DNA of 64,000 nucleotides from Acidimicrobiia bacterium (GCA_031385545.1 JANNBN010000057.1:3055-67054); one strand, 5' to 3'. Counted from the stretch's first letter, positions 15,005-40,875 are shown. Notes: generated by a model not told the origin, from the sequence alone. Numbers and translations are program-made.

Positions 15005-15394
15005 ATGCCAGCTACCCGCCGCTCACTCGACATGGTGGCCGAAGCCTCGGCCCGCATCCGTACCTATTCGGTGGCCGAGGCCACAGCCAAGCTGGGTGCC
15101 GAGGGCGTGACATTCGTCGATCTGCGCGACCCTCGAGAACTCGACCGTGACGGGCGTATCCCCGGTGCACTCCACGCGACCCGAGGCATGTTGGAGTTCT
15201 GGGTCGACCCCGAAAGCCCGTACTACCGGTCCGTCTTCGGAGAAGACCGAGAGTTCGTGCTGTTCTGTGGTGGCGGGTGGCGCTCGGCCCTTGCGGCCGC
15301 AACGCTGCTGGATATGGGATTCGACCACGAATCCGTGGCGCACATCGACGGGGGATTCGCTGCCTGGAAGAAGGCCGCCGCGCCGATGGAGTGA
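15005..15394 (+). CDS. Rhodanese-domain sulfurtransferase
   Basis: 129 aa. FVDLRDPRE...GRIPGALH and the active-site loop FCGGGWRS. Confidence 0.85.
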
Positions 15395-22361: not shown

Positions 22362-22401
22362 CCTGCGTCAACCCTGTCTCACCCTGTCTCACCCTGCGTC
22401 A
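22360..22401. repeat. Four tandem 10/11-bp repeats (A-B-B-A) spanning the junction of two LuxR genes
   Basis: ACCCTGCGTCA (22360-22370), ACCCTGTCTC (22371-22380), ACCCTGTCTC (22381-22390) and ACCCTGCGTCA (22391-22401). The array covers the 27-nt gap between the stop at 22389-22391 and the GTG start at 22359-22361. Confidence 0.85.
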
Positions 22402-25745: not shown

Positions 25746-25890
25746 GACGATCGATCACCTTACGGCGAGCACCGCATTGCCACCACTCGCCGCAGTGAAT
25801 TCGATCGGGTTTTGCGAGCCGCTACCATCGGGAACGCCGTTGGTCGGTGTTGTGTCTGTCTGCAGCATCGGGCGAAAAGGCAAGCATCAC

Positions 25891-25964
25891 CGGGATGTAG
25901 CGCAGCTTGGTAGCGCGCCACGTTCGGGACGTGGAGGCCGGGGGTTCAAGTCCCCCCATCCCGA
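25891..25964 (+). tRNA. tRNA-Pro (anticodon CGG)
   Basis: Hand-folded cloverleaf of 74 nt. Acceptor is CGGGATG/CATCCCG plus discriminator A. D-arm is GCGC/GCGC. Anticodon stem is CCACG/CGTGG with loop TTCGGGA. T-arm is GGGGG-TTCAAGT-CCCCC. CCA is not encoded. Confidence 0.9.
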
Positions 25965-25980
25965 CAAACCCGAAAACGCA

Positions 25981-26007
25981 GAAGGACCCGCTTGTTGCGG
26001 GTCCTTC
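25981..26007. terminator. Strong hairpin between tRNA-Pro and the convergent minus-strand gene
   Basis: GAAGGACCCGC-TTGTT-GCGGGTCCTTC, an 11-bp perfect stem. On the minus strand it is followed by TGCGTTTTCGGGTTT, so it is the likely terminator of the 26062-26967 gene. Confidence 0.6.
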
Positions 26008-26061
26008 TCGACTGCTCGACTGCTCGGGTTCTCGACTTCGGACAACCGAGCCGGTGGTTCG

Positions 26062-26967
26062 TTACTTGTCAGACTTACCCTTGGTGCGGGCGGCCTTTGC
26101 GGCCTCGTGTTCGGCCTTCTTCTCAGCCTTCTCGGCTTCGTGTTCGGCCTTCTTCTCAGCCTTCTCGGACTTGGCCTGCGTTCCGAGCGCCTGTGCGGTC
26201 TGCTTCAGGAGGTCGGCGGCCTTGTCGAAGCTGGCATCGGCGAGCTTGATCTGCGCCTTGGCAGCGTCGACAGCGGCCGCGTTGGCTGTCTTGGTGGCCT
26301 CGTTGCCCTGATCCGGTGCCAGCCCGGTGAGGGATCCACTCGCTGCTGCTGCCGTTGCCTTACCTGTCGCGATGACCGGGGCGACCTGGGCAAGAAGTGC
26401 CTCGGCCGCAGCAGTGTTGACACCCTTTGCCTTGGCGGCTGCGATCTTGGTGGTCAGCTCAGCGATGGATGTCGTCTGTTTGGTGCCCCGAGCCCACTGC
26501 TTGTCGCAGGCGAGCGAGACGTGAACAACCGGTGAAACGACCAGATACACACGCTGGTGAGTGAAGATCTGCTGGTAGAGGGGCTTGGCAATCTCTGGGG
26601 TGGCCGCCGCTGCAATCGATGTTCCGAGGACGGTCAATCCTGCCTGGGTCAATCCGATGCGTGACAGCGACGAGGCGTTCTGGCCGCAGTCGGTCGTCTG
26701 TGACGAGACCTTTGCCGACCATGAGCCCAGGTCGCGCTGGCGCTTGGCGATCGCCTCTGCTGCCCGTGCTTTGATGGCTGCCAGGTTGTCCGGGGCTGTC
26801 TGGGTCTTCTTCTCCTGCTGAGCGTCGGAGGAGTTGAGCGCCGCCTCCAGCCCCGGGGTTGCTTGCTCGGTCTTCGCAGACTTGGACGAGTCCGAGTCAG
26901 CGAAGGCGGCAGCCGGTGTGAGCGCAAGGAGCGAAGCGGTCAGGACGAAGGTTGTGAGCTTGTTCAT
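26062..26967 (-). CDS. Secreted hypothetical protein with Ala/Lys/Glu-rich repeat tail
   Basis: The start was taken at MNKLTTFVLTASLLALTPAAAFA (signal peptide) inside ORF 26062-27030. The C-terminus is KSEKAEKKAEHEAEKAEKKAEHEAAKAA. No family was recognised. Confidence 0.65.
   Translation of the reverse strand: MNKLTTFVLTASLLALTPAAAFADSDSSKSAKTEQATPGLEAALNSSDAQQEKKTQTAPDNLAAIKARAAEAIAKRQRDLGSWSAKVSSQTTDCGQNASSLSRIGLTQAGLTVLGTSIAAAATPEIAKPLYQQIFTHQRVYLVVSPVVHVSLACDKQWARGTKQTTSIAELTTKIAAAKAKGVNTAAAEALLAQVAPVIATGKATAAAASGSLTGLAPDQGNEATKTANAAAVDAAKAQIKLADASFDKAADLLKQTAQALGTQAKSEKAEKKAEHEAEKAEKKAEHEAAKAARTKGKSDK
26106..26171 (-). repeat. 2 x 33-bp tandem repeat in the CDS
   Basis: CGTGTTCGGCCTTCTTCTCAGCCTTCTCGGCTT is repeated with a 2-nt difference. 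It encodes AEKKAEHEAEK x2. Confidence 0.85.
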
Positions 26968-27175
26968 GAGGCCACTCTGCGAGGCCGCTATGAGCTGCTC
27001 AGGCGGGGGTTGTGAGGAGTTTGTGTGCAATTGAACGGAAGATTCGGTTCGCTCTCCTCACGGTGGGTGAGCGGTTCATCAAGGTTGAGTAGACGCACGA
27101 AACCCGGCCCGAGTTCTCGGTCGGAGTTCGTGTTGAAACGATTCCCAGCGGCTCGACCGCGACTGAACGGTTGAA

Positions 27176-30127
27176 CTACGGGACGTAACCGGTGACGTCG
27201 ACTACCAAATGGGTCGTAGCCGAGGTATACAGGCAGACCTTTCCGCTTGTCCCCAGCCGAGCCACAACAGCGTTCGAGATGGTCTGTCCGGCGGTGAAAT
27301 TGTTATTTGAAGCGAGTGGCAAGGTTGACCCGCACGGATACACCGTGACGAATCCGGCAGTGCCGGGCTGGGTGACGGCAATGTTGAGCGTGACGGCATA
27401 GGCATTTGCCGGGATGCCTGCACGGCCGCCCGCGGTCAGCTCGAGACTCGAACCGCTGTCCAGGGGTCCTGCCCCGGCTTGCTGGTTGTCGAACGTGCTT
27501 GCGCCCTGCCGAGTGTCGAGGAGGCGGGCAGGAAGCATCGCAATGTAGGGCGAGGTCGCCGGAAAATAGCCGCTGGCATCGACAACGATGTGAGCTGCCG
27601 CGGAGGTAAAGATGCAGACCTTTCCGTCTGTACCCAAGCGTGCAGAAACCGAGTTGGCGATGGTCTGGCCCGCTGTGAAATTCAGATTTGAGGCCACTGG
27701 TAACGGGGATCCGCAGGGGAACACCGTCAAAAAACCGGCTGCCGTCGGTTCGGTGATTGCAACACTGATCGAGGCGGCTTTCGCTGTCATTGGAATACCG
27801 CCGCGCCCACCAATGGTGAGTTCGATGGTGGAACCGGCCGACCGTCCACCGATACCGGCGAATAGGTTGTCGATCGTGAATTGACCGACCCGAGTATCCA
27901 TGAGGCGTGCCGGGCTTGTTGATGTGAAGAAAGAAGGTGCCCTGGAATAGGCCGACGCATCAACAACGACGTGGGTTCCCTTGGACACGTAGATACACGC
28001 CCTGCCGCCTGCACCGACGCCTGCGGGCACCATTCCGGAAAGAGTCGCGCCTTGCACAAAATTGACGTTCGAAGACGTCGGGCGGGCTGTGCCACAGGGG
28101 AATACGGTGACGAACCCGGCACCCGTGGCTTGGGTGATGGCTACATTCAGCCAAACCGTGGTTGCGTCAGCGGGGATGCCGGCTCGGCCGGTCAATTGCA
28201 GTTCTGTGGTCGTTCCATCTCCCAGTATTCCAATTCCTGCCATCTGGCTGTCGATGGTCTGCTGGCCGGCTCGTGAATCAAGAAGTCGGGCCGGGCTGAA
28301 GGCGACGAACGTGGGCAAGTTGTTCGGCGGTGTTGTCGTCGTGGTGGAGGTCGTGGAGGTCGTGGAGGTCGTGGAGGTCGTGGAGGTCGTGGAGGTCGTG
28401 GTAGTCGAAGTCGTTGTTGGAGTTGTTGAACTGGTGGCCGTGGTTGTACCGGTGGTTAGTTCGAGCAGGGTGATAGAGGCGGGAGCGAAGGTGCGGGTGT
28501 AGCTGGAGGCGCCTCCGCGGTTGGTGGTAACGCCAGGTGCGTTGGAGAAGTCGTCAGCGGGGGCGACGAGGCCGTTGTAGGTGGGGAGGGTGTCGTTGAT
28601 CGTGGTCCCGGCGAACGTATCGGCATACTCGCTGACGATGCCCTTGCCATCGATGCTGATGGCTGCAGTCTTGGGGCTGTTCGTCTTGTTGATGACCATC
28701 AAGGTGGTGTTGCCGTTCTTCTGGCCGGCGTAGATGGAAAGATCACTGCTGGCGTTGAATGAGGTGTCGACGTCCTTGATGCTTGTTCCGAATCGCTTCC
28801 AAAGAGCCATGGCGTAGTACGTAGGGAAACGGTAGGCGTCTTCGTAGTTGTTGTCCTTGAAGCCCATCAGCCCGAACTCATTACCGAACCAGGAGTCATA
28901 GTACATCGTGAATTGGTTTGATCCGATGAATCGATCCTTCAAAGCCATCTGGCCAATGGAGTCGCCGACCATCATGGCGTTCATAATCTGATTGAGACGC
29001 ATTCCTTCTCGTTCTTGCCAGCCCTCGGAAGTTAGGCCGAATTCCGACATCAAGACCGGTGTCTTGCTCGTAATCCCGGCGATTGATTCGAGTACCGATA
29101 GCTGCTGGTCGAGTTGCGCCAGTTTGACTTCAGGGAAGGCAAGGATGGTTGCGTTCCCGGAGGGGGTGTTTGGTGGCGGATCGTACTGGTAGTAGGTATG
29201 GATGATCAAGAAGTCGATGTCTGTTCCAGCCCGGTTGAACAGCGGCTGCATCCACGGGTTCGACGCGTTGAGTTCACCCTGGGTGCCTGGGATGCCAACC
29301 TTGATGGTCGGGTCGATGGTCTTGAGGAACGTCTTCGTTTCGGAGTACCCGTTGCGACGGGTTGCCCCTGAACCGATGCCTTCGTAGAACTCGACCGAAC
29401 TGCAGGTCCAGACCGTCTCCCATCCGAACGCGAGACACCCGGGAGACCCTTTGCCGCCCATGGTTTCGTTGCCGAATTCCCAGGTCTTGATGTTCATCGG
29501 AGAGGTCACACCTCCGTTCACCCTCTTCTGTGCCCAAAAGCCGACCGTCTTCCAGTCGATACCGAGTTGGTCGACACCAATCACCCGCGTGTCGTCGACG
29601 GTGCCGTTCGAGAATGCAACCAGAGCGGCGTTCTCCTTCATTGTGGCATTGGCATTAAGCGTCATGACCAGTTGCTCCGTACCCACCTGATTCGCCCATT
29701 TGAAGAACTCAGAGGTACGAATGAGCGGGTCGGTGGTGAGGTTACGTTTTGCTGCAGGAAAGCAGGGCGTACCGTAGGTGACTGCGCCGGGAGTGGTTGA
29801 CAACTCACAGGACGCCCATCCCCAGTCCTGGGCCGCGACCCCGCCCGGAAACCGCATGAAATCGGTTGCCTGGCTGCCGCGGCTCGCCAACTGGGTGTTC
29901 AGGAACGACGGATGCACGAAGAACGACGCGTTCGTGCCCCACTTCATCGGGCCGAAATCACGGAAGGGCCGCCCGTCGACGCGAATGGTGCCGTCAGCGA
30001 CGCTCTGAGCGGACCCGACGCCGCTTCCGACTATCGACCCAACCGCGGCAGCAGCCGCCAGCAATGACACCATTGTTCGTCTCCGTCGAGCGAACGGGTG
30101 TGTGATCGACGAGATCCTCGGTGTCAT
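27176..30127 (-). CDS. Secreted clan GH-A-like glycoside hydrolase (GH51/GH79-like by motif), Thr/Ser linker and three 127-aa C-terminal repeats
   Basis: 983 aa with a signal peptide. MRFPGG, the WEFGNE acid/base-type motif, the LMSEFG nucleophile-type motif and a beta-sandwich-like LMVINKTN segment are present. A TTSTTS linker and three repeats follow. GAGGAG RBS. Confidence 0.8.
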   Translation of the reverse strand: MTPRISSITHPFARRRRTMVSLLAAAAAVGSIVGSGVGSAQSVADGTIRVDGRPFRDFGPMKWGTNASFFVHPSFLNTQLASRGSQATDFMRFPGGVAAQDWGWASCELSTTPGAVTYGTPCFPAAKRNLTTDPLIRTSEFFKWANQVGTEQLVMTLNANATMKENAALVAFSNGTVDDTRVIGVDQLGIDWKTVGFWAQKRVNGGVTSPMNIKTWEFGNETMGGKGSPGCLAFGWETVWTCSSVEFYEGIGSGATRRNGYSETKTFLKTIDPTIKVGIPGTQGELNASNPWMQPLFNRAGTDIDFLIIHTYYQYDPPPNTPSGNATILAFPEVKLAQLDQQLSVLESIAGITSKTPVLMSEFGLTSEGWQEREGMRLNQIMNAMMVGDSIGQMALKDRFIGSNQFTMYYDSWFGNEFGLMGFKDNNYEDAYRFPTYYAMALWKRFGTSIKDVDTSFNASSDLSIYAGQKNGNTTLMVINKTNSPKTAAISIDGKGIVSEYADTFAGTTINDTLPTYNGLVAPADDFSNAPGVTTNRGGASSYTRTFAPASITLLELTTGTTTATSSTTPTTTSTTTTSTTSTTSTTSTTSTTSTTTTTPPNNLPTFVAFSPARLLDSRAGQQTIDSQMAGIGILGDGTTTELQLTGRAGIPADATTVWLNVAITQATGAGFVTVFPCGTARPTSSNVNFVQGATLSGMVPAGVGAGGRACIYVSKGTHVVVDASAYSRAPSFFTSTSPARLMDTRVGQFTIDNLFAGIGGRSAGSTIELTIGGRGGIPMTAKAASISVAITEPTAAGFLTVFPCGSPLPVASNLNFTAGQTIANSVSARLGTDGKVCIFTSAAAHIVVDASGYFPATSPYIAMLPARLLDTRQGASTFDNQQAGAGPLDSGSSLELTAGGRAGIPANAYAVTLNIAVTQPGTAGFVTVYPCGSTLPLASNNNFTAGQTISNAVVARLGTSGKVCLYTSATTHLVVDVTGYVP
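28344..28397 (-). repeat. 6 perfect copies of a 9-bp tandem repeat (Thr/Ser linker)
   Basis: GTGGAGGTC x6 on the plus strand, encoding (TST)n on the minus strand. Confidence 0.95.
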
Positions 30128-30414: not shown

Positions 30415-30903
30415 GTGGTACCGCTCAGAAGATTGTGGCTGCGGATGCGCGCCTTCCGCCGACTGCCACGTCGTTCGCAAGCTGTCTTCTTCCCTGCCCT
30501 CGTTCTCAATCCGTTGTTCCGGCTCGTTGCCAAGCGTCGGGGCATCAAGTCGGCAACTGCATTGGCTCGACGCCTCGCGGGTCACGCCGTGCAGCCGCCG
30601 CAGCCGGTCGACCCGACCGGAACGCACACGTCGCTCCCGATCGCACGTCAGGTGGTTCTGGGGGTACGCGCAGCGGCTGGCGCGCTCCCGGTTGAGCTTG
30701 TCTGCCTACCACGGTCGCTGACCGCCTGGACCATCCTCAATCGGATGGGAATTTCGGCCACCCTGCGGATCGGTATGGATGCCTCGACCGATCACAAGAC
30801 AGCACACGCATGGATCGATGTTCTGGGTGAACCCATCGGCGAGGCGCCTGGCCAGATCCAGCAGATGGCGGAGTTCTCCGAACCGATACTCGGGCGAACA
30901 TGA
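30415..30903 (+). CDS. Lasso peptide biosynthesis B2 protein (transglutaminase-like leader peptidase)
   Basis: 162 aa. LVCLPRSLTAWTILNRMGISATLRIGMD....AHAWIDVLGEPIG carries the Cys and His (CLxRSL ... AHAW) arrangement of McjB-C-terminal/B2 proteins. The stop overlaps the next gene (ATGA). Confidence 0.85.
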   Translation: MVPLRRLWLRMRAFRRLPRRSQAVFFPALVLNPLFRLVAKRRGIKSATALARRLAGHAVQPPQPVDPTGTHTSLPIARQVVLGVRAAAGALPVELVCLPRSLTAWTILNRMGISATLRIGMDASTDHKTAHAWIDVLGEPIGEAPGQIQQMAEFSEPILGRT

Positions 30904-31859
30904 CTGAGGTTGCATCGCGGCGCGTCCTCCTGCACGGGTTGGTTGTCGAGACCAACATGCCCGTTGCAGCGCGTCCGTCGACTGCGTCTCCGCAGGTTTG
31001 TTGCAGTACCGACAACGGTGTGTTGCGGTCCGACAACTCAAATTCAGGAACTGTGCTTGCGCAGGACTTGGTCGCTGGTGTTGTGACAATGCGGGTGATG
31101 ACGAACGGCTTCGGGTATTTCATCGAATGGCCCGGCTTCATGCGCGCGACGTTGGATCGAGCGTCGAGGAGTGCAGCGTTCGAACTTGGCTTCAGTGTCA
31201 GTGATCCTCGGTCCGCTGCGGTTGCGCCGGTGATGCTTTCCCCGGCGGTCGGGGTTGTGTCAATGCTCAACGGTGCAATCGTGCTGCACACATCCGCTGT
31301 TGTCGTGCGGGGCCGGGCGGTGCTGTTGCTCGCGGATCGAGGCGGTGGAAAGTCTTCCATCGCGGCCCTCCTTGGGAGTGCCGGGGTTCCGCTCCTTGCT
31401 GAGGACGTCTGTGCGCTCACAATCGATTCCCTCGGCACCCCCGTCGCCCACTCAGGGATTCATGAACTTCGCCTCCGCACCACCACACCGTGGTTGGCCG
31501 ATCTTCACGGTCTCGTGCGATCGGCGCCGCATTTTGATGGCCGCATCGTTGTCCGGCCGCCCGTAGCGTCTCAGGCCGTTGTTCCTGTATCTGCGATCCT
31601 GGTCGTGCGACTTTCCCACTCCGCCAAGCGAGTGACTATGGAACGCATTCCGGTGGCCCAATCCGTACGTGTACTGATGACTTCGCAGCGATGTTCGCCG
31701 ATTCTGACCAACTCCCTCGCTCTGTCGATGTTCAACAGTGCCGTCGATTGTGTTGACCGGGCCGTCACCTCGATTCTCAATGTGCCGTGGGCAGAACACA
31801 GACGCAACCGCGAACTGGGCCTTGAGCTGGCTGAAGCGATCTCGGCAAGCATCCCGTGA
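30900..31859 (+). CDS. HPr-kinase-like lasso-cluster kinase 1
   Basis: 319 aa. LHTSAVVVRGRAVLLLADRGGGKSSIAALLGSAGVPLLAEDVCAL matches the HprK C-domain core (H..v....g.avLl.G.sG.GKS...L...G..L.aDD). Confidence 0.8.
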   Translation: MTEVASRRVLLHGLVVETNMPVAARPSTASPQVCCSTDNGVLRSDNSNSGTVLAQDLVAGVVTMRVMTNGFGYFIEWPGFMRATLDRASRSAAFELGFSVSDPRSAAVAPVMLSPAVGVVSMLNGAIVLHTSAVVVRGRAVLLLADRGGGKSSIAALLGSAGVPLLAEDVCALTIDSLGTPVAHSGIHELRLRTTTPWLADLHGLVRSAPHFDGRIVVRPPVASQAVVPVSAILVVRLSHSAKRVTMERIPVAQSVRVLMTSQRCSPILTNSLALSMFNSAVDCVDRAVTSILNVPWAEHRRNRELGLELAEAISASIP

Positions 31860-31870
31860 TTTCGCCTCTG

Positions 31871-32164
31871 CTACCGATGTCGGCCTTCAGCTTTGGACGA
31901 CGACGCCATTCTCCTGCTGGCCAGATCCACTAAGAAGCGGTGAATGTCGAGACGCGCAATCTCCTCGCTGACGTCGAAGCGTTCGGTGACGACACGTACC
32001 AAATGATCGAGGTTCGCGCCCGGTGTGAGTGCCTCCCAGATCACCACCCCGGGCCCATCGATCGATACCGACGTTGAGGTGCGCAAGTCGAAGACGATGA
32101 CGGCGTCGTCGACCTTCTGCCAGGTAATCGTGTCAGTCTGCAGTCTCCAGACCTCTTCGAGCAT
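31871..32164 (-). CDS. PqqD-family protein (lasso B1 / RiPP recognition element)
   Basis: 97 aa. VIVFDLRTSTSVSIDGPGVVIWEALTPGANLDHLVRVVTERFDVSEEIARLDIHRFLVDLASRRM is the PqqD/RRE pattern. Confidence 0.85.
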   Translation of the reverse strand: MLEEVWRLQTDTITWQKVDDAVIVFDLRTSTSVSIDGPGVVIWEALTPGANLDHLVRVVTERFDVSEEIARLDIHRFLVDLASRRMASSSKAEGRHR

Positions 32165-32202
32165 TCGACCAGACTAGGTCTCTCAGCGAGAATCGACTCC
32201 GA

Positions 32203-33414
32203 ATGCCGCCGACTTTGTACTCAAATCCCAAGATCCTTTCTCCTGACGCTGCAACGATTCGGTGGAACTTTCCCCTGTTCAGTGAGCTTGACTCTTTCGA
32301 CGAACTGGCTTGCCCTTCACCGGTCGATCCCGATACCCGTGCACGCAACAAACAGCGAGGCTCGCTGTTCGAGGTGTTGATCGACCTGATTCAGCAGCGT
32401 CTCGACGACACTCCCGTTTACGTTCAGTTCTCAGGCGGATGCGATTCGTCTCTGGTGCTGTCTGCCGCCGTTGTCGCGTGCCGCCGATGTGATCATGATG
32501 CACCCATACCAATCTCGTTTCGGTACCCGCTGCTACCAGAGACCGACGAAAATGACTTCCAAGCTCTCGTTCTCGATTTTCTGAAACTGCCTCAGGGTCG
32601 GATCGAATCAATAACGTCCGAGTTTGATCTTGTGGGTCCAGCGGCGCAGAGGGGCCTTCGGGAGTTGGGGCTCGTGTGGCCGGCTCCGGTGGTCGCCTGT
32701 GCAGACGTGTTCCGGTCCCTGCCGCCGGGTTTGGTGCTTTCCGGCGAGGGCGGGGACGAGGTGATGGGACCTCGTCGCATAGCCGGCGTGTTCCGGGCGG
32801 CCGAGATGCTCAGACAGGGCCGTCTGAAATCGACGGCGGGCAACTTGGCAGTCGCGCTCGGCCCGTCGGCTTTGCGCACGAGAGCAATGATGCGCAGTGG
32901 CGGAATGGTTGGAGAATGGATAGCGGCCAACGAAGCCGAACGGTTCGTTTCGAGGATAGGCGAAACATACGGAAGCGAACCGTTGCTGCCCAGCCGTTAC
33001 GCGAAATACTACGCGCGCCTATCGAGTTCGGCGTTGGCTTTTCATCAGATCACCGCCATCATGAACTGGGCTGGGCAGCAGTACTGTGCGCCGATCATGG
33101 AGCACGCCTTCGTAGTCGGGGTGAACGACCTCACACCGGCATCGGACTTACGGAACCGTTACCGGGTCCTCGGACGCCATTTCAGTGAACACCTGCCCCC
33201 TGAGATCGTGAAACGAACAACCAAGCGGTACATGCAAGCGGTGTACTTCAACGAGCACGCACGCGAATTTGCCCGCCATTGGGACGGGCAAATTGACGAC
33301 GAAGCTGTGGATGGACGCCTGTTGCGGAACCATTGGGTGACTGCCGAACGAGATGGGGTCTGGTCGCAGACCTTTCTGTTGTTGCAGTCGGCGTGGCTTG
33401 CTTCAGCGGCCTAA
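32203..33414 (+). CDS. Asparagine-synthetase-like lasso cyclase (C protein), synthetase domain only
   Basis: 403 aa. PP-loop VYVQFSGGCDSSLVLSAA and LVLSGEGGDEVMG. An in-frame TAA lies at 32125-32127 with no start codon before 32203, so the ORF cannot be longer. Confidence 0.8.
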   Translation: MPPTLYSNPKILSPDAATIRWNFPLFSELDSFDELACPSPVDPDTRARNKQRGSLFEVLIDLIQQRLDDTPVYVQFSGGCDSSLVLSAAVVACRRCDHDAPIPISFRYPLLPETDENDFQALVLDFLKLPQGRIESITSEFDLVGPAAQRGLRELGLVWPAPVVACADVFRSLPPGLVLSGEGGDEVMGPRRIAGVFRAAEMLRQGRLKSTAGNLAVALGPSALRTRAMMRSGGMVGEWIAANEAERFVSRIGETYGSEPLLPSRYAKYYARLSSSALAFHQITAIMNWAGQQYCAPIMEHAFVVGVNDLTPASDLRNRYRVLGRHFSEHLPPEIVKRTTKRYMQAVYFNEHAREFARHWDGQIDDEAVDGRLLRNHWVTAERDGVWSQTFLLLQSAWLASAA

Positions 33415-33417
33415 GGC

Positions 33418-33552
33418 TCAGGAACTCGTGAGCGGCTGACCGGCTGGAATGGCCTGATCTGCGAAAGCCTTCGGGCTTGCTGCAAGCGTGGTTTCCGTCA
33501 CTGAGCCGATCTCCTGAACGGCAGGGGCGGTGTAAGGCTGTTTGGTTGACAT
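33418..33552 (-). CDS. Lasso peptide precursor (A peptide), 44 aa
   Basis: My translation is MSTKQPYTAPAVQEIGSVTETTLAASPKAFADQAIPAGQPLTSS. The leader fits YxxPxLx3Gx5Tx (Y7, P10, V12, G16, T22). The predicted core AASPKAFADQAIPAGQPLTSS has a single acidic residue at position 9 and a C-terminal SS. It is below the 60-aa ORF-track cutoff. Confidence 0.75.
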   Translation of the reverse strand: MSTKQPYTAPAVQEIGSVTETTLAASPKAFADQAIPAGQPLTSS

Positions 33553-33614
33553 ACCGGTATTCTGGACGACAGCGCGGGAAGCAAGTAATCGTCAGTTTCC
33601 CGTACGGGAGTAGT

Positions 33615-34652
33615 GTGGTGCACCTGAAACAGTTGAACTGGCTCCACGGTCTCCGGGTCCAGGCCGACCTGAACCTTCCCTGTGTTCCCGCCGAGAGCGG
33701 GGGCCCTGACCTGGTTCTGTCCACCGGGGTCGACAGTTCCGGCCTCGCGAAATCGAAGCTCCGCTCTCGGGCGCCATCATCAGTCTCCGACCGAGTGGCA
33801 TTGACCGGAGTCGACAACGGGGAGGTCGATGGCCACGAGGTGGTGTTCCTTGACCAGGCTATGTCAATCCGGCGCGCTGTTGGTGCGCCTCGCGTCACAG
33901 TTCGGTACCCGGCCGTTGGGCTGCGATTCAGCATCGACAGCTCAGGAACTCCGGCGCTGGTGGTTGCCTCGGCAGACCACGGCGAGTGGCTGCCGTGGAT
34001 CACGGTACTCGTTCAAGGAGCTGTCGTTGCTGTGGCGGTCGCCATGTCCGGGAGGGCCGCGTTCCATGCCAACACCGTCGACGTAGCTGGGCAGGGCATT
34101 CTCGTCGGTGGGGCGTCCGGTGCAGGAAAGACGGTCGCGACGGCGCTCTTGGTCCTTGCCGGACACACGCTCGTCGCCGATGACGTCAGTGTTGTCGATC
34201 CGGACCTGCCGGTCCGGCCGGGCCTGCTTGAACTGCGGGTCCGCACCTGGGAAAACCCTCTTGGCCAGTTGCTGGTCGACGAGCTGGTCGGCCTGCCCGG
34301 TACCAGCCAACAAGAAACAGTTGACTTCCGGGTCGCAGTCCGGCTCGGGACGGACCCTCACCCCGATGGCGTTCTACCCGCTCGCATGGTCTTGCCAACG
34401 TTCGACGATGAAACGAAACACCCGAGACTTGAGACCATTCGTGGCGCTGAGGCAGTCAAAGCCCTTCTTCCGACGATGCGCCTCGTGGGCTGGAAGGACC
34501 CCCACCGCCAACGCGCAGACTTCGGGCATTGTGCAGACTTGGCCCTCCGGGTCCCGATTCAACGACTTTTCCTCCCGCGCCTCGGCGGCGATGAACCAGC
34601 GCTGCTTCGAGACACTGCAGCTGAGCTGTCCGACCTGATCAGAAACTGTTAG
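33615..34652 (+). CDS. HPr-kinase-like lasso-cluster kinase 2
   Basis: FHANTVDVAGQGILVGGASGAGKTVATALLVLAGHTLVADDVSVV is a very good HprK C-domain core. The start was taken at GTG 33615 (GGGAG 5 nt upstream) inside ORF 33477-34652. Confidence 0.8.
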   Translation: MVHLKQLNWLHGLRVQADLNLPCVPAESGGPDLVLSTGVDSSGLAKSKLRSRAPSSVSDRVALTGVDNGEVDGHEVVFLDQAMSIRRAVGAPRVTVRYPAVGLRFSIDSSGTPALVVASADHGEWLPWITVLVQGAVVAVAVAMSGRAAFHANTVDVAGQGILVGGASGAGKTVATALLVLAGHTLVADDVSVVDPDLPVRPGLLELRVRTWENPLGQLLVDELVGLPGTSQQETVDFRVAVRLGTDPHPDGVLPARMVLPTFDDETKHPRLETIRGAEAVKALLPTMRLVGWKDPHRQRADFGHCADLALRVPIQRLFLPRLGGDEPALLRDTAAELSDLIRNC

Positions 34653-34710
34653 CGGTGCAGGTTCATCGTTCAGGATCGAGGACCCGATCAGCCATCCGAG
34701 GTGGTGCCTC

Positions 34711-35406
34711 CTACTCGGCGCCAGGTAACTCCCGAAAGCGCTGGAGCGCTTGCTCGCGGTTACGGGCTCCGAGTTTGCGATAGAGAATCCGTTGCAACGA
34801 TTCGACGGTCTTCGGAGTCACCCCAAGGTCGAGGGCGATTGACTTGTTCCCCGCGCCAGACTTCATCAACTGGATCAACTCTCGCTCCCGCGCGGTGATC
34901 CGGGTCTCCCGGTGGTTCGCAGGGAATGGCGACGTGCCGACCGCCCGCAAGAGCTGCTGTGCGTTCCAACCCGCCGCACCTTCTGCCAAAGCGGCTACTG
35001 CTGTTTGCAGCGCACGTATACCATCGTCTGGGTCAACGAACCACATCACTCCGCGGCTGAGGGCAATGGACAGGTCGTGGGCCCGCTGCGTCGGTGTGGT
35101 GACCAATACGACGGGTGTCCCGGATCGCACGAGCTGTAACGCCGGTCCAGCTCCCACGCCTCTGTCGTCGAGGACAACGGTAATGGTCTCGCCGATGGGT
35201 TGACGCTTCGTCAGTGTGGAGGTCGACCCCGAACTCCGGCGCGGCCCGTTCGGGACAATGACGGATCCGATCTTTTCCAAGTTGGCGCGTCGGAGAAGTG
35301 CCGCCACCCCCAAAGCCACTAAAGGGTTGTCGGCAACGACCACCAATGTGATCGCTGCGGCGGGTGCGGGCGCAGCATCAGCTGCCACAGAAGTCAGGCG
35401 GATCAT
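34711..35406 (-). CDS. LuxR-family regulator with atypical receiver-like N-terminal domain
   Basis: 231 aa. The C-terminal ITARERELIQLMKSGAGNKSIALDLGVTPKTVESLQRILYRKLG is the HTH. The N-terminal VVVADNPLV...VVLDD...VVLVTT is receiver-like but carries an insertion and lacks the conserved Lys region. Confidence 0.75.
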   Translation of the reverse strand: MIRLTSVAADAAPAPAAAITLVVVADNPLVALGVAALLRRANLEKIGSVIVPNGPRRSSGSTSTLTKRQPIGETITVVLDDRGVGAGPALQLVRSGTPVVLVTTPTQRAHDLSIALSRGVMWFVDPDDGIRALQTAVAALAEGAAGWNAQQLLRAVGTSPFPANHRETRITARERELIQLMKSGAGNKSIALDLGVTPKTVESLQRILYRKLGARNREQALQRFRELPGAE

Positions 35407-35969
35407 CTACCTTTGGGGATCCCGTCAGGACCGCGGTCTTCGTTTTCCAGCAGGCCGGCCGATCGTGCGATCGCGACAGCTTGACCAGCCGTATGGACGG
35501 CCCACTTCTTGTACAGCTTGCGCCGGTGCGTTGACACGGTGCTGTTGCTGACTCCGATTTCGATGGCGATCTCGGCAGTTGTCCTGCCTTCGGCAATTCT
35601 TCGCAACACGGCAAGCTCCCGGTTCGTCGCGGGCATCACCTTCACTGACGGCGCTCGCCAAGGGTGTTTCAACCGCAGGGCAGCTCCGCTCCGCGGAACG
35701 CTTGGACCTTTCCGGGACGCAAGTTCGCCAGTGAGCCAGACAAGGGCATCCCGCGTCGGCGCAAGCTCGAGACTGAGAAGCGCGTCGGTTGAGCGCTGTG
35801 ACGGGGTGGCGGAATGATTCGAAACCCGGACAACTTGAACGATTGACTTGTCGGAGGTCCAATCTTGGTCCAGGGATTCGATCACAACAACCGACGCATC
35901 GGCCTCGCGCAGCACAGCGCTGATTGCCTCGCACCACAGTGCAGTGGACTCGACCACGGCTACTTTCAC
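35403..35969 (-). CDS. LuxR-family regulator with pseudo-receiver-like N-terminus
   Basis: The C-terminal TNRELAVLRRIAEGRTTAEIAIEIGVSNSTVSTHRRKLYKK is the HTH. The start was chosen at GTG 35969 (VKVAVVES...); the ORF extends to 36011. ATGA overlap with the downstream regulator. Confidence 0.7.
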   Translation of the reverse strand: MKVAVVESTALWCEAISAVLREADASVVVIESLDQDWTSDKSIVQVVRVSNHSATPSQRSTDALLSLELAPTRDALVWLTGELASRKGPSVPRSGAALRLKHPWRAPSVKVMPATNRELAVLRRIAEGRTTAEIAIEIGVSNSTVSTHRRKLYKKWAVHTAGQAVAIARSAGLLENEDRGPDGIPKGR

Positions 35970-36039
35970 TTCACAAGTGTTGCAGTTGCGAACGGACCGG
36001 TGCGATTGCATTCGTCAGTCGTCCGGGTACATTGAGACC

Positions 36040-37173
36040 GTGGAAGGTCCGATTGGTGCGTTGGTCGATCTTGCAATCGGACGTGCAACAGACCTGCACC
36101 ATCTTGCGAATTTCGGGCCGCGGCTGTTGGACTGCGCGCTCGAGCACCGCCTTGTCCCCATGCTCTGGGAGACGCTGGCAACGGTGCCAGGACTGGATCG
36201 CCAACGTGTAGCGGCGATCGACCTTCAAGCCCGACACCGGTATCGGATCGTGGAGGAAGAACTCGTCCGCGTCAGCGAGGTAGCGGCCGCCGTCGGCGTG
36301 CAGATCGGTGTCGTCAAAGGGGTGGTCAATTCCGAACGATGGTTCGCATCAGACCCTTCGGTTCGACCGTGTTCAGACATCGACCTGTTCCTCGACCCGA
36401 CCGATCCTGGAGGCACTGACCGCTTGTTGGCTGCGCTCGAACCGGCGAGCCCGCTGTGTGGCCACGCGGGGCATCTGATGGCTCGTGGCGTGCTGCCCGA
36501 CATCCCGATCACCAGCGGACGGTTGTTGGTCGAGATCCACGCGAACCCGATGACGCTGCAACTCAGCAGGAGCCGAATCAACGCGCTGTGGAATTCGACG
36601 GTGGGGACCACCACTCGCGCCGGTGGCTCGGTCCGGTGCCTTGACACCACAACGGCACTCGTCCATGCGCTGATCAATTCGGCCAAGGACAACCACGCGT
36701 TCCTGTTGCAGGTGCTTGAAGTAGGTCGTGCGCTGCACGATCCACAAGTCGACTGGGGTCGCTTCGAGCAGATTGTTCGTGACAACCGCTGGGACACCGT
36801 CATCGACGATGCCCTCGGCTACGTGTGCGCGTTGTTGGACCAACCCGGCCCGCCCGTCGACCTCAAGCCAGAAGCTGCATCCGTGTGGGCCATGCACCGA
36901 CTTGCTCCAGTCGCCGATCGGCTTGGGGGGCGAGCCTCGTGGCGTCGAGCCCAGCGTTTCTGCAAGCTGGACCTCGTCGTGCCGGGAACACGGGTCGCAA
37001 CGGCGAAAGGAATCGTCACCCGCACGTTTTCACCCGATGAATACATCTCCGCTTTCGCTCCTGATCTCCGTGGTCCTTACCCTCTGCGCGCTGCCAAGTT
37101 CTGGGTTCGTCGCCAGCAGTACGTGAAGGGCACGCGGTCTTCGCTGGCCGGCCCGCTCCCGAAGCAAGGTTGA
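36040..37173 (+). CDS. Nucleotidyltransferase-fold protein (PF14907/NTP_transf_5-like), lasso-cluster associated
   Basis: VVKGVVNSERWFASDPSVRPCSDIDLFLDP...LLVEIHANPM fits the pattern of the uncharacterised nucleotidyltransferase family. The start was taken at GTG 36040 inside ORF 35848-37173, because the 5' part overlaps the divergent regulator. Confidence 0.65.
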   Translation: MEGPIGALVDLAIGRATDLHHLANFGPRLLDCALEHRLVPMLWETLATVPGLDRQRVAAIDLQARHRYRIVEEELVRVSEVAAAVGVQIGVVKGVVNSERWFASDPSVRPCSDIDLFLDPTDPGGTDRLLAALEPASPLCGHAGHLMARGVLPDIPITSGRLLVEIHANPMTLQLSRSRINALWNSTVGTTTRAGGSVRCLDTTTALVHALINSAKDNHAFLLQVLEVGRALHDPQVDWGRFEQIVRDNRWDTVIDDALGYVCALLDQPGPPVDLKPEAASVWAMHRLAPVADRLGGRASWRRAQRFCKLDLVVPGTRVATAKGIVTRTFSPDEYISAFAPDLRGPYPLRAAKFWVRRQQYVKGTRSSLAGPLPKQG

Positions 37174-39014
37174 TTCGGTTGAGGGGCGTGCTCCGGCTGT
37201 TCGCAGGGCTGTCGACCAACCTTCGACAGACCTATCGATTGGTCTGGGACGGTGCCCGATCACAGGTGACCATCGGTCTTGCGCTCGACGTTGTGCTGAC
37301 CGTCGCCACGATCGGCCAACTGGCCTTGGTGAAGCGGTTGCTCTCGCAATTGCGGGTCGGCGCTCAGCAAGGCGAGTTAGCGCAGCCGTTGCTCCTCACG
37401 ATCGCCGTCAGTGGAGTCCTCGCTGCCACGGTGGCGGCGATCGGTGCGGTGCAGATGTTCATTCGGCCACTGGCAGTTGAGATGCTCACTCGCCACACGT
37501 ACGCCAAGGTGCTCGAACGACTGCGCACGGCTCCCCTCGAGGACTTCGACGAGCCCACGTTCCATGACCGTCTTGAACGGCTTTCGAAGGACGGGGTCGA
37601 GCGTCCGGCCGAACTGGTGTGGGCGGCGTCCGGGCTGCTTGCCAGCCTGATCGGCATCATTGGCATCGGCGCGTTCGTGACGTCGATCCTTCCGGAGATC
37701 ATGCCGATGGTGATCGTCGGGGCGATACCGCTGCTCGTCGCCAGCCGTGTCGACGCCCACGCCTACTACCAATACATCCAGGGTGTGGGATCACTTCGCC
37801 GCAGAACCCAATACCTGCGAGACGTGCTCACCGAACGCAAGATGGCGCCCGAACTTCTTGGTTACGGGCTTCGGCCCAGGCTGGAGGAGTGGCACGAAGC
37901 TTTTCAGCAACAGCGGATCGACCGGCTTGCGACGATGGTCAAGTCCCGCTCCATCCGCTCCATCTACACGGCGATTGCAACCATCATCGTCACGATTGCA
38001 GCCATGTCGCTCATCGCGTGGAGGGCTACACATGGTGACCTCACCATCGACGAAGCCGTCGCTGTGGTGTTGGGCGTCCAGCAGTTGACGGGAAGGCTTT
38101 CGACCCTTCGGTCCGCCCTGTCTGTCGTGCAACAGAATCGACTGTTCCTCTCGGACCTGTTCAGCTTCCTCAACGACGTCGCCCCGCCGAGCACCGACCA
38201 GCGCCCGTCTGTCAGCGAATCGGGCACGGAGCCGGTGCCCGTCGGGCTGGGCAGCGACATCCAGGTCGACTCCGTGGTCTTTCGCTACCCGGCGCAGACC
38301 CGAAATGCTGTCGACACCATCGATGTGCACATTCCGAAGGGACAGGTCGTCGCGCTGGTCGGAGAGAACGGGTCAGGCAAGACGACGCTCGCCAAAATCA
38401 TTGCGGGGCTGTACTCGCCGACGTCGGGAACTGTGCGGGTCGGTGGAGTCGACCTGGCCGGGTTGCAGGGCTCGGCCCGCACCCGCCACGCCGTGACCGT
38501 ATTCCAGGACTTTGCTCGGTTCGCCCTCAGCGCCCACGACAACATCGCGTTGGGTGACACGGCGCGGATGAACGACCCGGCACGAGTGCAGCAGTCGATC
38601 GATGCGGCCGGTCTGGGTGGAGTCATCGATGCGCTTCCCAACGGCTTGGACACCATCCTGGCGTCGCAGTTCGAGGGCGGGGTTGATGTGTCATCGGGGC
38701 AGTGGCAGCGGTTCGCACTCGCCCGTGCGTTCTACCGTGATGCCCCGGTCCTGCTCTTGGACGAACCCACCGCTGCACTCGACGCTCGGTCCGAGTACCT
38801 GCTGTTCGAACGAGTCCGCGAAATCGCCCGAGGTCGCACCGTCATTCTGATCTCGCACCGTCTGGCCTCAGTTCGCGACGTCGACCGGATCATCGTCATG
38901 CGCACCGGACGCATCGTGGAGTCAGGAACGCACCAGGAACTGATCGCGTCTGGCGGGCTGTACGCAGAACTGACGGACCTGCAGGAACGAACGAGCCTCG
39001 CCAACCTGGACTGA
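37170..39014 (+). CDS. ABC exporter, fused permease and ATPase (McjD-like lasso D protein candidate)
   Basis: 614 aa. The N-terminal half has 6 TM helices. Walker A is GENGSGKTTL, the signature is SSGQWQR and Walker B is LLLDEPTAALD. TTGA overlap with the upstream gene (alternative starts at 37179 and 37188). Confidence 0.9.
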   Translation: MIRLRGVLRLFAGLSTNLRQTYRLVWDGARSQVTIGLALDVVLTVATIGQLALVKRLLSQLRVGAQQGELAQPLLLTIAVSGVLAATVAAIGAVQMFIRPLAVEMLTRHTYAKVLERLRTAPLEDFDEPTFHDRLERLSKDGVERPAELVWAASGLLASLIGIIGIGAFVTSILPEIMPMVIVGAIPLLVASRVDAHAYYQYIQGVGSLRRRTQYLRDVLTERKMAPELLGYGLRPRLEEWHEAFQQQRIDRLATMVKSRSIRSIYTAIATIIVTIAAMSLIAWRATHGDLTIDEAVAVVLGVQQLTGRLSTLRSALSVVQQNRLFLSDLFSFLNDVAPPSTDQRPSVSESGTEPVPVGLGSDIQVDSVVFRYPAQTRNAVDTIDVHIPKGQVVALVGENGSGKTTLAKIIAGLYSPTSGTVRVGGVDLAGLQGSARTRHAVTVFQDFARFALSAHDNIALGDTARMNDPARVQQSIDAAGLGGVIDALPNGLDTILASQFEGGVDVSSGQWQRFALARAFYRDAPVLLLDEPTAALDARSEYLLFERVREIARGRTVILISHRLASVRDVDRIIVMRTGRIVESGTHQELIASGGLYAELTDLQERTSLANLD

Positions 39015-39034: not shown

Positions 39035-39478
39035 CTAGCGCGCGGTTGAGTCAGCTGTTGCGCGGTAGTTGGTGGAAGCGTCGCCTGCCTGTGGGCGGTC
39101 TTCGTAGCGCTCGCCCGCGAGCACAGCGCGCATTGCCTTGCGGACGCGGATCGGGTCGAGCGGCTTGATGAGCCATCCGTCGGCGTCGCATTTCTGGGCC
39201 AGATACGTGTCGGCGTTGCGGTCGAGCAGCAACAGCACGGGCACTTCGGGGGAACGGCCGCCAGAGGCCTCGAGGCGTAGGTCGTAGGTGACCGCAATCG
39301 CCCCCATGTCCGAGATCTGCATGTCGAGGATGACAAGGTCCGGCTCTTCGGTGGCCACGATATCTCGGACGGCCCGGCCGGCGGTAACGCTGCGGATGAC
39401 GGTATCGCCACCCGGGATGGCGGCGCGGATCTCGTCGTGCACCCAGGGGGCGTCGCTACAGATCAAGACGGTGGGCAT
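39035..39478 (-). CDS. Stand-alone response-regulator receiver domain protein
   Basis: 147 aa. VLICSDAP, DLVILDMQISDMG (phospho-acceptor Asp), VLLLLDR and GWLIKPLD (conserved Lys). Confidence 0.85.
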   Translation of the reverse strand: MPTVLICSDAPWVHDEIRAAIPGGDTVIRSVTAGRAVRDIVATEEPDLVILDMQISDMGAIAVTYDLRLEASGGRSPEVPVLLLLDRNADTYLAQKCDADGWLIKPLDPIRVRKAMRAVLAGERYEDRPQAGDASTNYRATADSTAR

Positions 39479-39489: not shown

Positions 39490-40875
39490 CTAGTGCCCGG
39501 CAGGTGCAGGACCAGCGGCACCGGTGGCCGTGGCGGCTACGAACCCCGGTTTGAACAGCAGCCAGAACAAGATGCCGGCGGCCAAGGTGAGTCCGGCGCC
39601 GGCGACGAGCGGCGTGTTCGAGCTCACGCTCGACGCGACGTATCCCACGAGGACCGATGCCGGAACCTGGGCGAGGCTGGACACGCTGGAGTAGATACCC
39701 ATCGCCTCGCCTTGGCGGCCCATCTCGGCGGAGCGCGACATGAGCGAGGTGAGGTTGGCCATGGACAGACCCTGGAAGAGCGCCAGGACCGGGATGAACA
39801 GGTACAGGATGGCGGACCGGGTGATGAGGCAGTACGCCGTGAGTGCCACTACTTGGCCGAAGATCGAGAAGCGGAGCACCTTGTAGTCAGCCAGCTTCTT
39901 TGCCACCACGCCGACCAAGGCGCCTTGGGTGATGGCGATGAACACGCCAACGATGGCGAAGTAGTCACCGGTCTTGGATTGGGAGAAACCGAATTTGTTC
40001 TTGACGTATACCCCGAAGAACGTGGTGAAGAACGTGAACCCACAGACCCAGAAGAACGCTGTGGTCAGGACGGGGCGAAGCCGTGGACTGGAGAAGCCCT
40101 CCTGCACGTTGCGGACGGCCTTTGACAGTTCGAGCTTTCCGCTGCGTTTGTGGACCAGCGTCTCGGGAAGCCTGAAGAACACCGAGGCCGCGTTGAGCGC
40201 CGCCAAGAGCGAAGCGAACAGGAACGGTGTTGTCGCTCCGAACCACGAGGGCGTGTCGAACAGGCCGTAGAAGCTGGTGTCCGGAGCGCTGAGCCGACCG
40301 CCGATGTAGGGCCCGAGGATGAACCCGAGACCGAACGCAGCACCGATGAGACCGAAGTTCTTGGCTCGGTTCTCGTTGGTCGAGACGTCGCCGATTGCAG
40401 CTTGGGCAACGGCCAGGTTGCCACCGGTGATGCCGTCGATGGCTCGGCCAAGGAACAACAACGGGATGGACTTGGCGCTGATGCCGGCGGCGAAGATCAG
40501 GTAGCCGACAGCTGTTCCGGCGATAGAGATTGCGAGGATGGGCCGGCGGCCCATGCGGTCCGAAAGCTGCCCGAGAATCGGTGCCGCAAGGAAGATGCAG
40601 AGGGGATACACCGCTTGGAGCCAACCAAGCATGATGAGCCCGGTCGTTGGAGACCAATCCAACGGGGTGACGCGGAACGCGGCCCCGGGCCGTGGATCGA
40701 TGAGGAGCGGGAAGACGGGGATGAGAATGGAGAAACCAACGAGATCGATGAAGATCGTGAAGAACAACGGCAACAGGGCCTTTCGCTGGCGGGGTTGCGT
40801 TCCGCTGCCAGCAGTGCCGGGGCTATCGGTTGGAAAGACTTTCGGAAGGACTTCCGGAGGTTCGGAGTTCGGCAC
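39490..40875 (-). CDS. MFS transporter
   Basis: 461 aa with about 12 hydrophobic spans. MFS motif A is GQLSDRMGRRPIL. Confidence 0.85.
   Translation of the reverse strand: MPNSEPPEVLPKVFPTDSPGTAGSGTQPRQRKALLPLFFTIFIDLVGFSILIPVFPLLIDPRPGAAFRVTPLDWSPTTGLIMLGWLQAVYPLCIFLAAPILGQLSDRMGRRPILAISIAGTAVGYLIFAAGISAKSIPLLFLGRAIDGITGGNLAVAQAAIGDVSTNENRAKNFGLIGAAFGLGFILGPYIGGRLSAPDTSFYGLFDTPSWFGATTPFLFASLLAALNAASVFFRLPETLVHKRSGKLELSKAVRNVQEGFSSPRLRPVLTTAFFWVCGFTFFTTFFGVYVKNKFGFSQSKTGDYFAIVGVFIAITQGALVGVVAKKLADYKVLRFSIFGQVVALTAYCLITRSAILYLFIPVLALFQGLSMANLTSLMSRSAEMGRQGEAMGIYSSVSSLAQVPASVLVGYVASSVSSNTPLVAGAGLTLAAGILFWLLFKPGFVAATATGAAGPAPAGH

Follow-up and report, generated by a model that had tools for sequence, protein, structure and literature searches.

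Tailoring of lasso peptides by phosphorylation has been described for paeninodin (pade) and for the kinases ThcoK and SyanK, systems of Firmicutes and Proteobacteria with a split B protein, in which an HprK-homologous kinase carrying a His-Lys-Asp-Asp motif phosphorylates the linear precursor at its C-terminal Ser (PMC8498205, PMC9266682). In the pseudomycoidin (psm) cluster of Bacillus pseudomycoides DSM 12442 (Firmicutes), which comprises A, C, B1, B2 and one kinase gene (K), a PF14907-type gene (N) that pade lacks is located just upstream of the exporter gene (D); PsmN, in which D134 and D136 are essential, attaches hexose to the phospho-Ser and may thereby lock the thread, and the unmodified peptide, whose 9-residue ring joins Ala1 to an acidic position 9, unthreads, the phospho-hexose being proposed as the lock (PMC6993621). 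The bsf cluster of Bradymonas sediminis likewise combines A, B1, B2, C and D with K and N; its kinase BsfK bears the motif H...G...GxGKS...DD, which is essential in lasso kinases, is assisted by B1, which accelerates phosphorylation, and targets Ser3 of the ring, and its precursor has Ile(-2) in the leader and ends in Asp (PMC10368454). We report here the analysis of a locus at positions 30415-39014 of a 64,000-nt stretch of DNA from an Acidimicrobiia bacterium (GCA_031385545.1 JANNBN010000057.1:3055-67054; the whole stretch is called the window), which an earlier reading of the DNA alone (the sequence-only reading) had interpreted as a split-B lasso cluster with HprK-like kinase and PF14907 tailoring genes.

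The window shares with psm the genes A, C, B1, B2, K and a PF14907-type N just upstream of D, a predicted ring of nine residues closed between Ala1 and an acidic position 9, a candidate modification site at the C-terminal Ser, the conserved DxD of N and, by inference from its plug-less tail, a thread that would not hold unmodified. It differs from the Firmicutes psm cluster, with its one kinase, in an additional, divergent kinase gene (K1) coupled to B2, two LuxR regulators, genes on both strands and a 403-aa cyclase. With paeninodin, ThcoK and SyanK it has in common the split B and, in its second kinase (K2), the kinase motif together with a precursor that ends in Ser, whereas the window kinases are very distant in sequence. 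The gene complement and kinase motif of bsf are also present, but the window leader has Thr(-2) and its precursor a C-terminal Ser, and the bsf-type pairing of an Ile/Val(-2) leader with a Ser/Thr3 kinase site was not found in the window. Canonical actinobacterial split-B clusters, such as those for lariatin and fusilassin, have split B1 and B2, an ATP-binding cassette (ABC) exporter and a YxxP...T(-2) leader; these features and the phylum are shared by the window, whereas canonical cyclases have an N-terminal domain that is missing from the window cyclase family. In the literature surveyed, kinase plus N tailoring was not found reported for characterised actinobacterial lasso peptides, and no description was found of an actinobacterial kinase/N-type lasso group or of a short cyclase family, an earlier tabulation being possible.

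With good confidence, region 30415-39014 was assigned to an intact, selectively maintained lasso-type cluster for a ribosomally synthesised peptide with post-translational modifications (RiPP) on an Acidimicrobiia chromosome, encoding a paeninodin/pseudomycoidin-like pathway with a minimal cyclase. The product is probably phosphorylated at the tail and perhaps sugar-decorated. Every property of the split-B paeninodin/pseudomycoidin type that can be examined in sequence was found, except the full-length cyclase architecture, which C lacks. All ten open reading frames (ORFs) proposed in the sequence-only reading were recovered, as listed below.

30415..30903, plus strand: B2 leader peptidase, a transglutaminase-like Cys protease, 162 aa (PF13471, NF033537)
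30900..31859, plus strand: K1, divergent HprK-like kinase paralog, 319 aa (paralogy to K2, motifs, fold)
31871..32164, minus strand: B1, PqqD-like RiPP recognition element, 97 aa (PF05402)
32203..33414, plus strand: C, short lasso cyclase candidate, a stand-alone Asn-synthetase-type PP-loop domain, 403 aa (PF00733)
33418..33552, minus strand: A, precursor, 44 aa (leader MSTKQPYTAPAVQEIGSVTETTL, core AASPKAFADQAIPAGQPLTSS)
33615..34652, plus strand: K2, family-type HprK-like peptide kinase, 345 aa (PF07475)
34711..35406, minus strand: R1, LuxR/GerE-type regulator with a degenerate receiver-like N-terminus, 231 aa (GerE, 44.7 bits)
35403..36011, minus strand: R2, LuxR/GerE-type regulator, 202 aa (GerE, 50.7 bits)
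36040..37173, plus strand: N, PF14907 nucleotidyltransferase-fold tailoring enzyme, PsmN-like, 377 aa (PF14907)
37170..39014, plus strand: D, ABC exporter with fused permease and ATPase, 614 aa (ABC_tran, MsbA/HlyB-type)

Curated Pfam and NCBIfam cut-offs were applied to the window proteins and were passed by B2, B1, C, K2, N, D and both LuxR genes, so that the five Pfam searches proposed earlier (PF13471, PF05402, PF00733, PF07475 and PF14907) each returned the expected protein (B2, B1, C, K2 and N, respectively) above cut-off. B2 scored 60.6 bits against PF13471 (cut-off 26) and 62.7 bits against the lasso_biosyn_B2 model NF033537 (cut-off 33), and its Cys97 (VCLPRS) and His131 (AHAW) were conserved in 68 of 69 family members. 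B1 scored 36.4 bits against PF05402 (cut-off 23.4), with weak matches to the lasso PqqD models NF033530 and NF033536. For D, a score of 98.5 bits was obtained with ABC_tran, along with full-length MsbA/HlyB-type matches of 215-245 bits (MsbA-like, 244). Overlaps of 4 bp, which had been read as a sign of co-translation, are real at B2/K1 (ATGA, 30900-30903) and at N/D (TTGA, 37170-37173), and a third (ATGA, 35403-35406) joins R2 and R1 on the minus strand. The split-B lasso assignment with kinase and PF14907 tailoring genes was thus borne out gene by gene and, in addition, by synteny with two relatives.

The first of these, L001, is an Acidimicrobiia metagenome-assembled genome (MAG) whose cyclase is 74% identical and in which the ten genes and both flanks are collinear with the window. 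The second, L002, is an Acidimicrobiales MAG with the same ten genes and two precursor copies; there (9714-13896, corresponding to window 31871-36011) the B1-C-A-K2-R1-R2 block in the middle has the reverse orientation with respect to the B2-K1 and N-D modules. Inverted repeats bounding this block were searched for in the window, and short imperfect matches consistent with chance were the sole result. D is about 80% identical in both relatives, and R1 and R2 were kept with the cluster in both. On one flank lies a tRNA-Pro(CGG) gene (window 25891-25965, plus strand; L001 3579-3653; L002 16630-16706), and on the other a 147-aa single-domain response regulator (window 39035-39478, minus strand), 97% identical in all three genomes. 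Since the flanks are conserved and the ten genes are kept in the window, L001 and L002, the cluster is a conserved chromosomal feature of the lineage, its ten genes moving as a unit. The actinobacterial context recognised from the DNA was confirmed by these nearest relatives, which are Acidimicrobiia MAGs with flank synteny, and by a GC content of 59-66%. The mixed strand orientation noted earlier is also genuine and is conserved in the close relatives, with the block inversion; the chemical meaning attached to it did not hold. The GC content of positions 26-34 kb (58.6-61%) is lower than in the rest of the window (62-66%), which, with the tRNA flank, could reflect an old tRNA-linked acquisition.

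Precursor A has a leader with Y7-T-A-P10 ... T22-L23, i.e. YxxP and Thr(-2), a core running from Ala1 through Asp9, and the end ...PLTSS. It scored 18.7 bits against the lasso_leader_L3 model NF033521, just below the cut-off of 19, and had no match in a set of 5.8 billion proteins. Its ortholog in L001 shares 93% protein identity; of the DNA changes, 22 are synonymous and 3 non-synonymous, and the ratio of non-synonymous to synonymous substitution rates is ~0.02, a constraint stronger than that on any cluster enzyme tested. A is a real gene under strong purifying selection. The leader motif Y-x-x-P-x5-G-S/T-x4-T-x was found beside the cyclase gene in 64 loci, giving 74 hits, a few of which are visibly frame noise. 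Thr(-2) was present in 70 of the 74 hits, Gly or Ala at core position 1 in 67, Asp or Glu at core position 9 in 59, and a C-terminal Ser in 50, against a background Ser frequency of 9.8%. From these family-wide counts cleavage at T-L|A and a ring from Ala1 to Asp9 are predicted, and the C-terminal Ser is the hallmark of the family. The 21-aa core proposed in the sequence-only reading was upheld, and the mass of about 2009.02 Da that had been calculated by hand for the dehydrated 21-aa core was recomputed as 2009.0218 Da (AASPKAFADQAIPAGQPLTSS minus water). No bulky residue (F, W, Y, R, H or K) occurs in the tail QAIPAGQPLTSS.

Two groups of family precursors were observed to deviate from this pattern. 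In L003 (9724-9885) and L062 (7327-7488) the cores begin AQSPLFPKSDGFY... and AKSPLNPKSDGYY..., respectively, with the first acidic residue at core position 10 and not at 7-9, which would imply that the ring has 10 residues, for which there is no precedent, or that cleavage is at a non-canonical site. In L056, L057, L060, L063 and L073 the precursors lie ~2 kb downstream of the cyclase, with cores of the form GGxGIxHGDxLLxxGSLLxxxxKxGL/I that end in Leu or Ile; the kinases of this subfamily form a separate clade and are encoded on the opposite strand, and their substrate site may differ.

Cyclase C scored 39.8 bits against PF00733 (cut-off 21) over residues 61-375 and aligned solely with the synthetase half of AsnB-type enzymes (TIGR01536 positions 239-514 of 517; AsnB residues 204-452). 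Its PP-loop, S77-G-G-x-D-S-S83, is invariant in the family and reads SGGCDSS in the window. The AlphaFold2 model is a single domain (predicted local distance difference test score (pLDDT) 93.5; predicted template modelling score (pTM) 0.92), to which the nearest solved folds are asparagine synthetases (ASNS) and TsnB9. Canonical lasso cyclases are ~500-650 aa long and consist of an N-terminal domain and a synthetase domain. The sequence-only reading had called C truncated; this description was not upheld, as ~400 aa is the normal family length and the gene is undamaged. A homolog search returned 74 proteins, all of 236-420 aa, and a library-wide profile search returned 957 representatives of 50%-identity clusters at E<=1e-30, of which the top 150 were 330-440 aa long in all but one case. 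In a scan of species-representative genomes, 342 cyclase loci were obtained, almost all from Actinomycetota, including Acidimicrobiia, Nocardioides, Isoptericola, Tessaracoccus, Georgenia, Jiangella, Solirubrobacterales and others. The short form without the N-terminal half of AsnB-type enzymes is a trait of a large Actinomycetota family. The cyclase had no match among plasmid sequences, and a cyclase profile search of Protein Data Bank (PDB) sequences together with a fold search returned AsnB-type and PP-loop enzymes but no lasso cyclase; according to a 2026 review no lasso cyclase structure has been solved (PMC13352647). The compact, confidently modelled ~400-aa enzyme is an attractive structural target and one with which the role of the canonical N-terminal domain can be probed.

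The missing half of C bears on what the product would look like. A minimal cyclase might close the Ala1-Asp9 ring without being able to pre-fold the tail, or the tail might slip out afterwards, giving an unthreaded branched-cyclic macrolactam; we consider this unlikely. In its favour, C is without the whole N-terminal half of AsnB-type enzymes, the tail QAIPAGQPLTSS contains none of F, W, Y, R, H or K, and unmodified pseudomycoidin was isolated in unthreaded form (PMC6993621); against it, selection acts on a leader, B1 and B2 of the usual lasso kind, aromatic-rich tails are found in many family members, and a C-terminal phospho-sugar could serve as a plug. A further departure, by which C would perform another ATP-dependent modification and the likeness to lasso systems would be superficial or the cluster decaying, is very improbable. 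In its favour are the public records of C homologs, which read "asparagine synthase-related" and nothing more specific, and the lack of any match of C to the NCBIfam lasso-specific cyclase models; opposed to it are the B2 score above the NCBI lasso B2 equivalog-domain model, the leader score at about the lasso leader model cut-off (18.7 vs 19), the co-variation of Ala/Gly at position 1 with Asp at position 9 across ~60 loci, and the intact, conserved state of all genes. A threaded lasso product is the preferred reading.

The co-occurrence of the other genes with the cyclase was determined by iterative profile searches of all ORFs in 80 cyclase loci. Homologs were found for K in 76 loci, B1 in 70, B2 in 67, D in 64 and N in 55. 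An apparent absence of B2 and N from most relatives, suggested by plain tblastn (B2 6/80, N 4/80), was discarded as a sensitivity artefact after the profile search had raised the counts to 67 and 55. The layout B1-A-C-B2-K-N(-)-D was confirmed by Pfam in Nocardioides halotolerans DSM 19273, and the same gene set was Pfam-confirmed from independently called genes in Amycolatopsis endophytica. A 409-aa "U" gene between K and D in Nocardioides was rejected as an antisense shadow ORF of N: in L014 the frame at 12500-13729 (plus strand), opposite the PF14907 gene at 12532-13728 (minus strand), mimics a conserved 409-aa "hypothetical protein" in at least 19 loci. Such a shadow ORF is typical of high-GC DNA and is an annotation trap.

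These counts alter how the tailoring genes should be seen. The kinases and nucleotidyltransferase had been put forward as part of a possibly new combination; they are already characterised together in pseudomycoidin (PMC6993621) and Bradymonas bsf (PMC10368454), and within the cyclase family they are the norm (K in 76 and N in 55 of the 80 loci). The reviews (PMC8498205, PMC9266682) bear out the earlier statement that the phosphorylated lasso peptides characterised to date are from Firmicutes and Proteobacteria. Both the pairing of kinase with N and the short cyclase belong to a large and apparently uncharacterised lasso lineage of Actinomycetota, in which the cultured genera Nocardioides, Isoptericola, Georgenia, Tessaracoccus and Amycolatopsis are represented. 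Rare at the present locus are a second kinase coupled to B2, a pair of LuxR regulators and a T-S-S tail without plug residues. The pathway class should already be flagged by standard genome-mining tools, PF13471 and PF00733 both being present.

Of the two HprK assignments made from the DNA, that of K2 was supported directly, with 36.4 bits against PF07475 (cut-off 33.3; the match covers the P-loop stretch only), and that of K1, which has no significant Pfam match, by paralogy, motifs and predicted fold. K2 was aligned to HprK/P (1jb1, 2qmh) with H151, GASGAGKT166-173 (K172) and D189-D190 in register; its start at 33615, the same as in the L001 ortholog, leaves no overlap with A. K1 matched K2 by BLASTP at E=6e-7 across the P-loop region and TIGR04352 at E=2.7e-4. 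In the K1 family of six members, H130, G148-G-G-K-S-S153 (K151) and E168-D169 are invariant. An AlphaFold2 model of K1 (pLDDT 74.5) gave as its best matches the HprK/P structures 3tqf, 1kkm, 2qmh and 1jb1, plus the related PEPCK fold. On the strength of its paralogy to K2, the invariant H/GGGKS/ED motifs and the predicted fold, K1 is HprK-like.

K1-like proteins are scarce, forming only 6 protein clusters among 5.8 billion proteins, and in a rough neighbour-joining tree K1 made up its own long-branched clade, while K2 fell among the single kinases of the wider family. In all six K1 loci the upstream gene overlaps K1 by 4 nt, and this gene is a PF13471 B2 in 5 of the 5 loci that could be tested. 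K1 and K2 occur together in at least four loci (the window, L001, L002 and L083); the precursor ends in T-S-S in three of these, and the core in L083 is ASLNQQIADKNIQAGQQNTSS. This association of K1 plus K2 with mostly T-S-S tails suggests that the two kinases address different tail hydroxyls or add successive phosphates. A role for K1 as a BsfK-like kinase of ring Ser3 was considered and found unsupported: Ser3 is present in the cores of the window and L001, but L002 and L083, both K1-bearing, have Asn3 and Leu3. Assignment to the HPr-rel-A system (TIGR04352 HprK_rel_A and TIGR04353 PqqD_rel_X) was rejected, with scores of 20.1 bits for K1 and 26.5 bits for K2 against a cut-off of 200, and of 20.7 bits for B1 against a cut-off of 35. 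The K1-family proteins P0079 and P0077 (L083, L084) have a weak precomputed hit to PF27840 ScmC, an HprK-related part of the SynChlorMet RiPP cassette; these similarities hint at a broader HprK-like class in RiPP pathways.

It is possible, if doubtful, that K1 is not a second tailoring kinase but a protein that serves B2 or the short cyclase as scaffold or adaptor, a phosphorylase or an immunity factor, in which case the product would bear the K2/N modification alone. HprK/P enzymes are bifunctional, acting as kinase and phosphorylase; the long branch of K1 falls outside the clade of family kinases, E168 replaces the first Asp of the catalytic pair, Pfam gave nothing at E<0.01 (PF07475, E=0.036), and the 4-nt overlap is always with the gene on the B2 side, not with A or N. 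Set against this are the invariance of the His, the complete P-loop (GGGKS) and the second Asp throughout the six-member family, the ability of Glu still to ligate Mg2+, and the multi-hydroxyl T-S-S tail that most K1 loci with known precursors share. A kinase function of K1 on the tail is the more likely reading.

N scored 68.8 bits against PF14907 (cut-off 31.2) and is situated just upstream of D. Its D113-x-D115, equivalent to the essential D134/D136 of PsmN (PMC6993621), is conserved in 56 of 58 family members. The group that N would transfer can be read in two ways. With a probability that we put at well under one half, N acts as a true nucleotidyltransferase that places a nucleoside monophosphate (e.g. 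adenosine monophosphate, +329 Da) on the C-terminal Ser or its phosphate, with no hexose: PF14907 is a nucleotidyltransferase-fold family with a DxD motif, nucleotidylation followed by host glycosylation could not be excluded by the authors of the pseudomycoidin work (PMC6993621, PMC9266682), and no sugar-activation genes flank the window cluster. The sole experimental precedent, on the other hand, consists of PsmN-dependent hexose adducts of +162 Da (PMC6993621), and sugar-nucleotide genes adjoin the cluster of the Amycolatopsis relative. That cluster (L081, Amycolatopsis endophytica, 1729-15128) contains two short cyclases, two precursors (ending in Thr and Ser), B1, B2, K, D and N, and is adjoined by genes for a GHMP kinase, an NTP_transferase, an epimerase and a GT4 glycosyltransferase, i.e. 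sugar-activation genes. As sequence neighbours these genes fit phospho-glycosyl tailoring in the family.

A pathway may be proposed on this basis, in which we infer what K1 does and in what order the tailoring steps take place. B1, by homology, would bind A through the YxxP...T(-2) leader. K2, helped by B1, would then phosphorylate the linear precursor, a step for which the paeninodin, ThcoK and PsmK precedents and the family-wide C-terminal Ser provide the grounds. K1 most likely adds a second phosphate, at another hydroxyl of T-S-S or onto the first phosphate, this being the least certain step. N would elaborate the phosphate, with one or two hexoses by precedent, a nucleotidyl group also being possible. 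B2, through Cys97/His131, would cleave after Leu(-1), C would adenylate Asp9 and close the 9-residue Ala1-Asp9 isopeptide ring around the tail, and D would export the product. With no bulky residue in the tail QAIPAGQPLTSS, it may be the phospho(-glycosyl) group at the C-terminus that serves as a plug and keeps the lasso threaded, by analogy with the proposal for pseudomycoidin. The expected product consists of the core AASPKAFADQAIPAGQPLTSS (2009.02 Da after loss of water), to which n x 79.97 Da and perhaps a further 162.05 Da would be added; the predicted neutral masses are 2088.99 Da with one phosphate, 2168.95 Da with two, and 2251.04 Da with one phosphate and one hexose. We tentatively combine these points in a joint reading that is attractive rather than probable, according to which the ~400-aa enzymes define an Actinomycetota-wide lasso lineage of hundreds of species with a minimal cyclase that works together with a near-obligatory kinase and a PF14907 enzyme, threading or locking involves the phospho(-glycosyl) group at the C-terminus, and in the sub-lineage of the window K1 adds a further phosphate on the T-S-S tail.

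Several observations weigh against the assignment of the locus to a phosphorylated, threaded lasso pathway. Beside the Pfam result for K1 and the Glu in its catalytic pair, C is without the canonical N-terminal domain and without a match to the NCBIfam lasso-specific cyclase models, lasso threading by C being a prediction from homology. The acidic third residue of the B2 triad is ambiguous in the alignment, and one of the two L002 precursors ends in -SR, not Ser. Sugar-activation genes like those of L081 do not adjoin the window cluster. The gaps between convergent or divergent genes are just 3-62 bp, and a promoter and terminator consensus scan of the cluster gave nothing above the shuffled background. 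The chemistry of the product is deduced from homology throughout.

If the joint reading is correct, the product would be the first multiply, differentially phosphorylated lasso peptide and the first from Acidimicrobiia. The locus with its hundreds of relatives would extend phospho- and phospho-glycosyl lasso chemistry to Actinomycetota. Cultured type strains, e.g. Nocardioides halotolerans DSM 19273, make the lineage directly testable, and the double-kinase sub-lineage with its plug-less tail offers a natural experiment on C-terminal modification as a steric lock.

The regulators R2 and R1 (LuxR-type; R1 also gave a weak full-length NarL-type alignment) probably control three very short divergent promoter regions, between B1 and C (32165-32202, 38 bp), A and K2 (33553-33614, 62 bp), and R2 and N (36012-36039, 28 bp). 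No clear Shine-Dalgarno sequences were seen in these regions, and the TANNNT-like hexamers TAGTCT and CAGAAT are located 6 nt upstream of the start codons of B1 and A; together with the gene packing, the hexamers hint at leaderless transcripts. The three regions share 8-mers only, namely TCGTCAGT (in two regions) and TAATCGTC, which were too weak to be claimed as a shared operator motif; TCGTCAGT may represent LuxR operator half-sites.

Outside the cluster, a 983-aa protein with a signal-like N-terminus (RRRR...AAAAVGS) and no Pfam or NCBIfam family is encoded at window 27176-30127 (minus strand). It is 77% identical in L001 and is absent from L002, where B2 abuts the neighbouring gene; because of this absence it was not counted as a cluster member, and it probably lies outside the cluster. 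Beyond the tRNA gene, at window 22389-25745 (minus strand), is a gene for a 1118-aa STAND/AAA_16 and GerE (LAL-type LuxR) regulator, in a ~4-kb segment that is missing from L001 and present in L002. A major facilitator superfamily (MFS) transporter gene at window 39490-40875 is also missing from L001. Beside the tRNA gene in all three genomes is a gene whose 322-aa product is rich in Ala and Lys, has a signal peptide and matches no family (window 26062-27030, minus strand); a plus-strand ORF at 25570-26535, which overlaps this gene and crosses the tRNA gene, is probably spurious.

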